Assembly: GCA_963169875.1 (NCBI GenBank)
Contig: CAUJEL010000040.1
Location: forward strand, 16,323 to 80,322
Length of the DNA stretch: 64,000 bases
DNA from: Candidatus Zhuqueibacterota bacterium
Lineage (GTDB): Bacteria; Zhuqueibacterota; Zhuqueibacteria; Residuimicrobiales; Residuimicrobiaceae
Direction of reading: 5' to 3'
Shown: piece after piece, positions 29,832 through 31,289 of the stretch
Layout of the letters: each line of letters opens with the position of its first letter
How positions within the stretch are numbered: position 1 is the first letter of the stretch
Notes under the pieces: generated by a model
Told to the model about the DNA's origin: nothing
What the model saw: the letters and a program-made list of their open reading frames with translations, nothing else
Database searches by the model: none
Made by a program: the position numbers and the translations under genes

Positions 29832-31289
29832 ATGAACCGACCATCCAGCTTCATCTCAATGTGTCTGGCTGTTCTCATGCTGACAGCGAATCTCTTTGCC
29901 ATGCAGATTTTTGTCAAAACATTGACCGGCAAGACCATCACCCTCGAGGTGGAACCCAGCGATTCCATTGAAAATGTCAAACAAAAGATTGAGGATAAGG
30001 AAGGCATCCCGCCGGATCAACAGCGTCTGATCTTTGCCGGCAAACAGCTCGAAGACGGCCGAACCCTGGCAGATTACAATATTCAAAAAGAATCAACCCT
30101 GCATCTGGTCCTCCGCATTCGCGCGGTACCCATCAAGGTTGGACATTATGTTTTTTTCGATGCCAATCACAACGCCTTGCAGGATCCCGAAGAACCTGGC
30201 ATTGAAAATGTTCTGCTGAAGTTATGGAACCTCTCCGGGGAGGTACCCGCATTCATCGCAAAAGTAAAAACCGATGCCAATGGCTATTACCGTTTTCTCA
30301 ACCTCCAGCCGGGCACTTTTCAGATTGCCATCGATGAATCCACATTGCCCGCCGGAGCCACTTCGACAACGGGCGGTCATACCCAGATCTTTACCGCCGT
30401 CTCAGGCATTGATTACCGTGGTGTCAATTTCGGCTATGATAACCTGGTGAATCCACCGCCGCTCATAGTCATCGATCCGGGAAATGACAAACCTGAGGGT
30501 TGTCAAAATCCGCTGCTGTTTGTCACCGGATCGCCTACTTATAAAAACACGAAATATGATTATGGATGGGACAAGGCGGTGGATTGCATCGTGGAAGGCC
30601 AGGAAGGGACCACCTGGGCCAAGACGGATCCCGAAAACGGCAGCGAGGTGCCTTGGGCCATCTTTGAATTCATGGACAAGGGCCTCTACCAATTCAATTA
30701 TGTGCAATTTCAGACCGATAATGGCCCGGATGACGACCAAGAAAAATATGCCTATCAAACCGATAAGATAGAGGTACTGGTTTCGGTGACCGGCATGGAA
30801 AAAGAAGATTTCACATCCGTCGGCATTTTCAAGCGCACCTATGGAACCACACAACTGCAGTGGTGCCGGCTGGCGGATTATGTCACCGCCAGGTATGTCC
30901 AGCTGCGGCTGTTGTCACCTGTGACAGATTTCAAGTGCACTCAGATCGTAGAATTCCAGGTGAACAGCAGTGCTAAAAAAGGCCCCATCGCGGTGCCACA
31001 GGCTTCCGATGCTGAACTGGTGTCCGTCGCGTCCCCTCTGCTGACCAATAATCCCAATCCCTTCAATCCGGAAACCACCATTGCGTACAAGGTGGTGAAA
31101 GACGAGCTGGTGACGGTAAAAATTGTCGATTTATTGGGCAGAGAGATTGTGAGCCTGGTGAATGGCTGGCAGCAAAAGGGTAGCTACACGACGGTGTGGA
31201 ATGGCACGGGGAATCCATCGGGCGTCTATTTTATCCGTCTGCAATCGGGTTCCCAACTGACCTCAAGAAGAATTCTGCTCCTGCGCTGA
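29832..31289 (+). CDS. T9SS cargo protein: signal peptide, eukaryote-type ubiquitin domain, CnaB/SdrD-B-like domain, discoidin-like domain, T9SS C-terminal sorting domain
   Basis: AGGAG RBS 6 nt upstream of the ATG at 29832 ([23 protein letters not shown], signal peptide). Residues encoded by 29901-30122 read [74 protein letters not shown]. The C-terminus [17 protein letters not shown]...[10 protein letters not shown] is a CTD. Confidence 0.85.

Follow-up and report, generated by a model that had tools for sequence, protein, structure and literature searches.

A near-native ubiquitin behind a signal peptide in a predicted T9SS cargo protein belongs to a broad prokaryotic class

A 64,000-nucleotide stretch of a Candidatus Zhuqueibacterota genome (contig CAUJEL010000040.1, positions 16,323 to 80,322 of the forward strand), called the window below and the reference for all coordinates, carries a complete open reading frame (ORF) of 485 amino acids plus stop codon (29832..31289, + strand) that encodes a signal peptide, a ubiquitin domain, an SdrD B-like domain (SdrD_B), a discoidin/CBM32-like domain and a type IX secretion system (T9SS) sorting domain. 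The window protein represents a broad class of prokaryotic proteins with a near-native ubiquitin placed at, or a few residues behind, the end of a signal peptide, and many of them end in the surface anchor of the respective lineage. Ubiquitin is the textbook example of a eukaryote-only, near-invariant protein, and its invariance is usually ascribed to its many eukaryotic partners. In the following, related loci are labelled L### and protein clusters P####.

The ubiquitin domain of the window protein (aa 24-99; 29901..30128, + strand) is near-native over residues 1-74 and matched the Pfam model PF00240 with 108.1 bits against a cut-off of 25.4 (E = 1.8e-31, aa 26-95), and ubiquitin chains of the Protein Data Bank matched it at E about 1e-39. 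Compared with human ubiquitin, 69 of 76 residues were identical (91%), the differences being T22S, A28Q, Q31E, S57A, L73I, G75A and G76V. All seven lysines (K6, K11, K27, K29, K33, K48 and K63) as well as L8, I44, H68 and V70 are present. The C-terminal Gly75-Gly76 is replaced by Ala-Val, and the tail RIRAV runs straight into the next domain, so that the window ubiquitin should be neither activatable by a ubiquitin-activating enzyme (E1) nor conjugatable as a donor. Judged by its sequence, it is a ubiquitin domain and not a conjugatable ubiquitin. The original prediction for this DNA had given the same list of substitutions, an intact set of seven lysines and L8/I44/V70 patch, and loss of conjugation with the Gly-Gly; realignment reproduced the list exactly, and the other two points agree with the residues just named. 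In the AlphaFold2 (AF2) model of the whole mature protein the ubiquitin part was poor, with a predicted local distance difference test score (pLDDT) of 25-68, because the alignment contained no ubiquitin rows; with solved structures at 91% identity, this is immaterial.

The 76-aa domain was used to scan bacterial and archaeal genomes, one for each species, and at least 441 stretches encoding relatives of the window ubiquitin were found in these species-representative prokaryotic genomes. The class was analysed in the best 80 of the at least 441 loci. Among these, 15 were tiny contamination-like contigs, and a few of the larger ones were polyubiquitins or Gly-Gly-ended copies on low-GC DNA. The layout of signal peptide and ubiquitin, followed by a variable C-terminal part, was observed in 48 of the 65 loci over 2 kb, with junctions such as SFA|MQIF, SLA|MQIF and ADA|MQIF, and ubiquitin residues 1-72/74 in these 48 loci were 84-97% identical to the window domain. 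The exported ubiquitin BfUbb of Bacteroides fragilis had been put forward as the only comparable case; this has to be abandoned, since near-native fusions of this kind are many in public prokaryotic genomes and include two more T9SS cargo proteins (L053, L063). The failure of the uniqueness claim makes the finding more interesting, not less. Cultured carriers are Paenibacillus sp. FA6, four Dyella species, Ruminococcus albus 8, Loktanella and Methylolobus.

A domain scan of 30 of the 48 proteins identified a surface anchor in 17 of the 30. Autotransporter beta-barrels were found in Pseudomonadota and Verrucomicrobiota (L012, L028, L030, L049, L070, L079, L082), IPTL-CTERM anchors in Rhodoferax and Brevundimonas (L009, L072), S-layer homology (SLH) anchors in a Bacillota metagenome-assembled genome (MAG) and in the complete chromosome of Paenibacillus sp. 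FA6 (L015, L022), type I dockerins (Dockerin_1) in Ruminococcus (L044, L074, L077), and T9SS sorting domains (Por_Secre_tail) in a Cytophagia MAG and, on a 128-kb contig, in a Marinilabiliaceae MAG (L053, L063). An LPQTG motif in Limiplasma (L011) was recognised by eye only. The near-native class is apparently so far undescribed: literature searches of partial coverage yielded only BfUbb and the BoUbb of B. ovatus, and no paper that describes a near-native ubiquitin joined to an anchor of the T9SS, autotransporter, SLH or dockerin type.

Among the best 80 loci, the closest class members to the window protein were L005, L053 and L063. The ubiquitin of L005 is identical to that of the window at 73 of 74 residues (71 of 72 over residues 1-72), carries the same derived I73 and is directly joined to SdrD_B repeats with a junction as in the window. 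L053 is collinear with the window protein across the discoidin-like and sorting domains, with 33% identity over 348 aa. The L005 protein, in a genome binned as Methanothrix, has 1,493 aa with five SdrD_B repeats and DUF11, and further signal-peptide-ubiquitin fusions (L020, L037) likewise lie in genomes binned as Methanothrix or Methanotrichaceae; neighbouring genes at these loci are uninformative on archaeal identity.

Several other layouts were observed beside the anchored one. In the Dyella isolates (L016, L051, L025, L068; contigs of 0.1-2.4 Mb) the ubiquitins are stand-alone secreted proteins with a BfUbb-like layout, 88-92% identical to the window domain and ending in RLRGG in two, LVLRL in one and RLRGY in one; the four loci have one neighbouring gene family in common, and L016 and L051 several more. 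In two MAGs labelled 'Methanobacteriota archaeon' (L006, on a 167-kb contig, and L013) the ubiquitin is embedded in a longer ORF; about 120 residues precede it, a signal peptide immediately ahead of Met1 is absent, and similar flanking sequence in both suggests that ubiquitin was inserted within a host protein. Near-native ubiquitins without a recognisable signal peptide were found in Microthrixaceae/Acidimicrobiia (L008, L014, L045) and Burkholderiaceae (L064) and may be cytoplasmic variants; in L064 a second, diverged ubiquitin-like repeat stands directly behind the first.

When 1.84 billion cluster representatives were searched with the ubiquitin domain, 6,916 clusters were obtained at E <= 1e-30, the best 150 of which were all multi-repeat polyubiquitins, a result that says nothing on the signal-peptide-ubiquitin class. 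The matches listed from a metagenome scan, which serve as a contrast and not as a census, were eukaryote-like ubiquitins and others that, from their low GC, may belong to giant viruses, with one clear signal-peptide-ubiquitin locus (L117).

The window gene was found in five assemblies from at least three sequencing runs, with the same context wherever flanks are present. The Logan assembly of ERR10643344 encodes an identical protein (100%), and those of SRR26159229 and SRR26159227 encode a 99% identical allele; the ERR10643344 and SRR26159229 assemblies also carry the window neighbours, downstream or on both sides. The NCBI copies in the protein cluster are located on a 178,581-bp contig, in the same place, and on a 3,986-bp contig, the latter being a third allele. 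The three alleles have 7 amino-acid differences in all, every one outside ubiquitin. The GC content at third codon positions (GC3) of the ubiquitin part is 0.579, against 0.54-0.73 in window genes, and its codon-usage score lies at the 67th percentile among 228-nt gene chunks. The window itself is an ordinary bacterial chromosome encoding GatD/GatE, MTHFR, RsmB, carbonic anhydrase and several other T9SS cargo proteins. Both the recurrence in one context and the host-like codon usage indicate a bacterial gene and not eukaryotic contamination, as had been argued originally.

Stronger conservation of the ubiquitin gene than of its flanks between strains was considered and rejected, since divergence is 0.2-0.8% along the shared region with one 1.8% bin, and the between-strain average of 2% stems from 32501-35034 alone. 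In the comparison of the window with L001, low divergence extends over most of about 12.7 kb and rises to 7-12% across this segment, the gene for the xanthine dehydrogenase molybdopterin subunit, which looks recombined.

When the window ubiquitin was compared with the 48 other copies, the fraction of differing synonymous sites (pS) was 0.6-1.0, which is saturated, and that of differing non-synonymous sites (pN) was 0.02-0.10. In pairs with collinear partner regions, ubiquitin was 89-97% identical and the partner 33-77%; examples are window and L053 (ubiquitin 91.7%, partner 33% over 348 aa), L030 and L070 (93%, 40%), L036 and L079 (89%, 36%), L026 and L029 (97%, 45%), and L021 and L034 (92%, 33%), corresponding to a ubiquitin rate more than ten times slower than that of the fusion partner. 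The GC3 of ubiquitin ranged from 0.26 to 0.88 across copies and followed both the GC of the host flanks (r = 0.76, p = 4e-10) and the GC3 of the remaining gene (r = 0.84), indicating that the DNA had time to adopt the host composition while the protein hardly changed. Across 49 prokaryotic copies, the seven lysines and the residues of the I44 (L8/I44/H68/V70), F4 and TEK-box surfaces were at least 94% conserved, as was the I36 patch save its tail residue L73 (65%). Residues 73-76 decay, with Gly-Gly kept in 6 of the 49 copies, whereas it is intact in most of the eukaryote- or virus-like metagenome matches listed. These comparisons argue that purifying selection inside prokaryotes holds the globular body and that the Gly-Gly tail is usually lost. 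An ameliorated horizontal acquisition under strong purifying selection, as originally proposed, is largely supported by the host-like codons, the pS/pN pattern, the slower change than in the partners and the GC3 that tracks the host.

The nearest eukaryotic repeat among the matches listed was from the polyubiquitin of the anaerobic amoeba Pelomyxa schiedti, with 72 of 74 identical residues (97%). S22, Q28 and A57 are already present in this ubiquitin, which marks them as donor-type residues and not bacterial changes and leaves only Q31E, L73I and the tail as derived. The variable globular sites in prokaryotic copies (16, 19, 20, 22, 24, 28 and 57) are mostly ones that also vary among eukaryotes. 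Several ubiquitin haplotypes occur among the prokaryotic copies, so more than one capture is possible, and the many different fusion partners point to recurrent fusion or cassette exchange. In addition, many metagenome contigs within L085-L163 (e.g., L089, L111, L127, L132, L153) have a very low GC of 0.17-0.30 and encode one ubiquitin without polyubiquitin repeats, which stops at Gly-Gly or 0-3 residues beyond it. Judged by this composition they may come from AT-rich protists or perhaps from giant viruses, either of which might have served as vector or donor.

The Sec-type signal peptide of the window protein (aa 1-23; 29832..29900, + strand) has a predicted cleavage site LFA|M, an Arg in the n-region, a hydrophobic core with 12-residue Kyte-Doolittle means reaching 2.46, and Ala at -1 immediately before ubiquitin Met1, as read from the sequence. 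A comparable signal peptide ends at Met1 in the 48 related loci, or a few residues earlier in three of them, and the residue preceding Met1 is A, G or S with one exception. From established Sec and T9SS biology, the protein would be exported by Sec and cut by signal peptidase I after LFA, making ubiquitin Met1 the mature N-terminus; the folded protein would then be moved by the T9SS through the outer membrane, its sorting domain cut off, and the protein linked to the cell surface or released. Ubiquitin would be the distal tip, furthest from the cell, atop the SdrD_B stalk. The tripeptide D21-S22-I23 of the window ubiquitin (29961-29969) fits the Bacteroidetes O-glycosylation motif D-(S/T)-(A/I/L/V/M/T). 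For BfUbb, glycosylation has been reported, as have secretion and cleavage at the position that exposes Met1, the latter two experimentally (PMC5705921).

The predicted mature protein has 462 aa with three domains beyond ubiquitin. The SdrD B-like, CnaB-type stalk (aa 102-181; 30135..30374, + strand) matched PF17210 with 61.1 bits against 29.7 (E = 1.4e-16), and the T9SS type A C-terminal sorting domain (aa 408-485; 31053..31286, + strand) matched PF18962 with 32.7 bits against 27 and TIGR04183 with 42.3 against 23 (aa 408-482), its NPNPFNP motif being conserved. The middle module (aa about 228-378; 30513..30965, + strand) remained below the cut-off of the F5_F8_type_C Pfam model (17.8 against 28.2 bits). 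In the AF2 model this region reached a pLDDT of 70-91, and Foldseek searches with it gave matches at E about 1e-7 to C domains of factor VIII, neuropilin b1/b2, CBM32 modules, a Bacteroides chitobiase C-domain and 3f2z, the last with a TM-score of 0.76 (normalised to target). By its modelled fold it is a discoidin/CBM32-type (F5/8 type C) galactose-binding-domain-like beta-sandwich. The domain is conserved in P0121, P0123, L053 and a window paralogue (48029..49708, + strand) that lacks ubiquitin and consists of a GH99-like head, this discoidin-like module and a T9SS sorting domain, as identified by BLASTP and Pfam; this protein is 38% identical to the window protein over 284 aa (BLASTP, E = 1e-47).

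A homology search with the whole ORF was dominated by eukaryotic polyubiquitins, P0080 being the sole useful match, and the part after ubiquitin was used as the query instead. Ubiquitin-less homologues were thereby obtained: P0121 consists of signal peptide, discoidin-like domain and sorting domain only, P0122 of DUF11 repeats, SdrD_B, discoidin-like domain and sorting domain, and P0123/P0322 come from a KSB1 bacterium. Since such homologues exist, the discoidin-like and sorting domains form a shared C-terminal cassette of a T9SS cargo family, and the paralogue without ubiquitin places ubiquitin at the variable functional-head position of this family; the domain organisation thus points to ubiquitin as a head added onto an older T9SS cargo family. 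At least three further proteins with T9SS sorting domains are encoded in the window (14441-16624, 48029-49708, 53974-57114). For the architecture, the original prediction stands with regard to an N-terminal mature ubiquitin on a predicted Sec/T9SS cargo protein, the signal peptide lying before Met1 and the sorting domain passing its cut-offs; the profile searches it had suggested (PF00240, PF18962, TIGR04183) all exceeded their cut-offs, and the paralogy with the 48029..49708 protein was recovered. The proposed fusion to CnaB/SdrD-B-like, discoidin-like and T9SS domains was supported by sequence for the first and last, and for the discoidin-like module by fold but not by the Pfam cut-off.

For the function of the displayed domain, the reading we favour, at a probability of roughly 40%, is that of a non-removable ubiquitin mimic that may engage ubiquitin-binding or ubiquitin-modifying proteins of eukaryotes meeting the cell, such as phagotrophic protists or hosts. 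E1 could not activate such a domain and deubiquitinases could not clip it off, and as a decoy, adhesion handle or chain-building acceptor it might alter uptake or digestion. A mimic or decoy for eukaryotic ubiquitin receptors, as originally proposed, would agree with the conservation pattern. The near-total conservation of the surface, lysines included, fits a mimic because recognition by many partners yields the same in eukaryotes; surface anchors as the identified partners, the constant tip position, the loss of a clippable tail and a closest donor sequence from an amoeba favour it as well. Prokaryotes keep about 90% identity over long times, export ubiquitin, mount it at the tip and drop only the conjugation tail, and it is difficult to account for this combination of retained body and lost tail if nothing that reads real ubiquitin also reads the displayed domain. 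It is possible, though doubtful, that surface-displayed authentic-looking ubiquitin is a widespread device of about ten bacterial phyla and of Methanothrix-binned genomes, repeatedly re-anchored and directed at the ubiquitin machinery of hosts or phagotrophic protists. It might then serve, e.g., as a chain acceptor or as a decoy that cannot be cleaved and change uptake, digestion or symbiosis, with the window gene as its T9SS version.

Several points weigh against a mimic. The main weakness is topology: a displayed domain faces the medium or the phagosome lumen, and ubiquitin receptors are, to our knowledge, cytosolic, so that contact would need membrane damage, vesicle delivery or extracellular receptors. 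Signal-peptide cleavage and surface attachment are predicted, and the function of every class member is inferred from sequence. No core T9SS genes (SprA/Sov, PorV, PorU, GldK-N) were found within the 64-kb window. Across 49 loci no class-wide neighbour gene was found; of the two largest recurrent neighbour families, one comprised ORFs antisense to ubiquitin and the other generic GGDEF proteins, and the remaining small clusters occurred only among related loci. With repeated fusion, the conservation could in part stem from the eukaryotic donors, and part of the synonymous saturation could predate capture, which is disfavoured for most copies because of the partner rates and the GC3 correlations.

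Two alternatives concern the gene itself. An artefact, in the form of a chimeric assembly or of contaminating eukaryotic DNA fused to a bacterial gene, would be in line with the many tiny ubiquitin contigs in bacterial assemblies that are plainly contamination (e.g., L018, L027, L039-L043, L054, L062); the probability that this explains the window gene is negligible in view of a continuous ORF in which ubiquitin is preceded by a signal peptide and followed by bacterial domains, the same place on the 178.6-kb NCBI contig, three alleles, Logan assemblies of three runs, two of them with the same neighbours, host-like codon usage and ordinary bacterial neighbour genes. A recently captured and effectively neutral eukaryotic fragment, native-looking for lack of time, is very improbable. 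Eukaryotic ubiquitin DNA is plentiful in metagenomes, and the many different fusion partners show repeated recombination, but codon usage has adapted to each host (r = 0.76 and 0.84), non-synonymous change is low although synonymous sites are saturated, L053 retains 92% identity in ubiquitin with only 33% left in the collinear partner, and a tail selectively lost from a body that is kept is unlike neutral decay.

The other alternatives accept a selected domain and assign it another role. The only characterised bacterial ubiquitins, BfUbb and BoUbb, are both toxins with the same layout of signal peptide to Met1 and no Gly-Gly (PMC5705921, PMC11467351), which makes an interbacterial weapon conceivable, in which the domain would leave the surface, enter competitors and inhibit an essential target in their periplasm; release is possible for T9SS cargo as well as for autotransporter passengers, and Dyella has stand-alone secreted ubiquitins. 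We regard this as unlikely. Purified bovine ubiquitin was inactive on BfUbb-sensitive strains even at a much greater dose, which weakens the case for a target in bacterial competitors, the other role originally suggested (PMC5705921). BfUbb has drifted to about 63% identity, so a toxin function needs no native sequence, whereas the present class stays at roughly 90% with all lysines kept; moreover, most identified members are anchored and not free, and no immunity or transporter gene is conserved nearby in the 49 loci. Ubiquitin is also exceptionally stable and a classic solubility tag, and it could be a generic structural module, i.e., a stable, soluble, protease-resistant N-terminal cap or spacer with no ubiquitin-specific binding. 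Its tip position on very different stalks and anchors and the lack of partner genes conserved nearby would agree with such a cap, which is nevertheless improbable, since a cap needs the fold and not the sequence, and the beta-grasp tolerates wide divergence, as in BfUbb (63%) and many ubiquitin-like proteins; here the patches and seven lysines are at least 94% conserved save L73, the change is more than ten times slower than in the partner, and most of the variable sites are those that also vary among eukaryotes. A ligand-binding or adhesion tip, or docking module, for a non-eukaryotic target (such as a partner protein from a prokaryote, or the surface or matrix of the cell itself) would suit the distal N-terminal position, which is typical of adhesin heads, the dockerins of the Ruminococcus versions, which place them in cellulosome-like assemblies, and the CBM32-like domain of the window protein. 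One prokaryotic partner would, on the other hand, constrain a single interface where almost the entire surface is constrained, a conserved partner gene was absent from the neighbourhoods of the 49 loci, and the class spans organisms with unrelated envelopes, all of which leaves this a rather remote explanation.

Compared with known systems, the window protein shares with BfUbb and BoUbb (B. fragilis and B. ovatus) a eukaryotic origin, the absence of Gly-Gly and, by prediction, export behind a signal peptidase I signal sequence that exposes Met1 (PMC3352274, PMC5705921, PMC11467351). It differs in that those are free 76-aa proteins, about 61-63% identical to ubiquitin, with BfUbb ending in Cys, whereas the window protein is 91% identical to human and 97% to amoebozoan ubiquitin, is fused to a stalk, a CBM32-like and a sorting domain, and belongs to a class of many phyla. 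BfUbb and BoUbb act as toxins on a periplasmic peptidyl-prolyl isomerase after ButCD import (PMC5705921, PMC11467351). In the 2017 BfUbb paper B. fragilis was described as 'one of a few bacteria' with a eukaryotic-like ubiquitin, and in a 2018 paper its ubiquitin was called the only one known. The P. schiedti polyubiquitin repeat has all lysines and recognition patches in common with the window domain; only the latter has a signal peptide, no Gly-Gly, a single copy, bacterial surface modules, and bacterial codons on a bacterial chromosome.

The ubiquitin-extension effectors of Globodera rostochiensis, as far as they are described in PMC5705921, likewise consist of signal peptide, ubiquitin and C-terminal extension and are used outside the producing cell against another organism, but in that description the producer is a eukaryote, the extension has 12 aa, delivery is by stylet into the plant cytoplasm and no surface anchor is present. 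Prokaryotic ubiquitin-like conjugation systems (antiviral ubiquitination-like operons, Pup, SAMP/TtuB, MoaD/ThiS) have the beta-grasp fold in common with the window domain. They are cytoplasmic and sequence-distant, with a Gly-Gly or equivalent end and neighbouring genes for E1, conjugating enzyme (E2) or deubiquitinase, unlike the window protein with its signal peptide, missing Gly-Gly and purine/pyrimidine catabolism neighbours. T9SS type A cargo of the Fibrobacteres-Chlorobi-Bacteroidetes (FCB) group has the same N-terminal Sec signal, modular passenger and C-terminal TIGR04183 domain, and the difference lies in the head, which is ubiquitin in the window protein and not an enzyme or conventional adhesin domain.

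If the mimic reading is true, it would represent a general cross-phylum strategy in predator-prey or host-microbe encounters and a natural experiment on the ubiquitin surfaces that matter outside the cell, one readily testable in the cultured carriers. Ubiquitin-coding sequences in bacterial assemblies should not automatically be discarded as contamination, and anti-ubiquitin reagents may cross-react with environmental and gut bacteria.

With regard to the gene, a Shine-Dalgarno-like AGGAG (29821..29825, + strand) was read 6 nt 5' of the ATG at 29832, and TTGACT-17-TATAAT (29708..29736, + strand), agreeing with 11 of 12 consensus positions, is a candidate sigma-70-like promoter by consensus match only. 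A second in-frame ATG upstream at 29802 has no ribosome-binding site; the ATG at 29832 was chosen by the gene callers in the Logan assemblies, and the NCBI copies likewise have 485 aa. The ubiquitin gene is a lone + strand unit flanked by two - strand genes, and its neighbours are purine and pyrimidine catabolism genes, with a dihydropyrimidine-dehydrogenase-like protein and an amidohydrolase encoded upstream, and XdhC and xanthine dehydrogenase downstream. No E1, E2 or deubiquitinase genes adjoin it.

Elsewhere in the window, GatD and GatE of an archaeal-type Glu-tRNA(Gln) amidotransferase are encoded at 39402-40823 (-) and 43979-45883 (-); GatE is 77% identical to a 'bacterium'-labelled protein and 64-72% to KSB1, Ignavibacteriae, Bacteroidota and Aminicenantes proteins, and close homologues are common in such MAGs. 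The nearest relatives of the host that carry a name are lineages of the FCB group (KSB1, Ignavibacteriae). About 4 kb upstream of the ubiquitin gene, 22658-25594 (+) encodes a 978-aa protein with a RyR (ryanodine-receptor) repeat domain, found by Pfam in the L001 copy; this domain is better known from eukaryotes. The window is also rich in surface cargo, with a cluster of secreted/T9SS-type genes (14441-16624, 17171-19540, 46403-48007, 53974-57114 (-), 57127-57798 (-)) whose products include an M4 thermolysin-like peptidase with a sorting domain, a separate FTP-propeptide protein, a DUF7507/DUF11 protein and FlgD_ig-like proteins.

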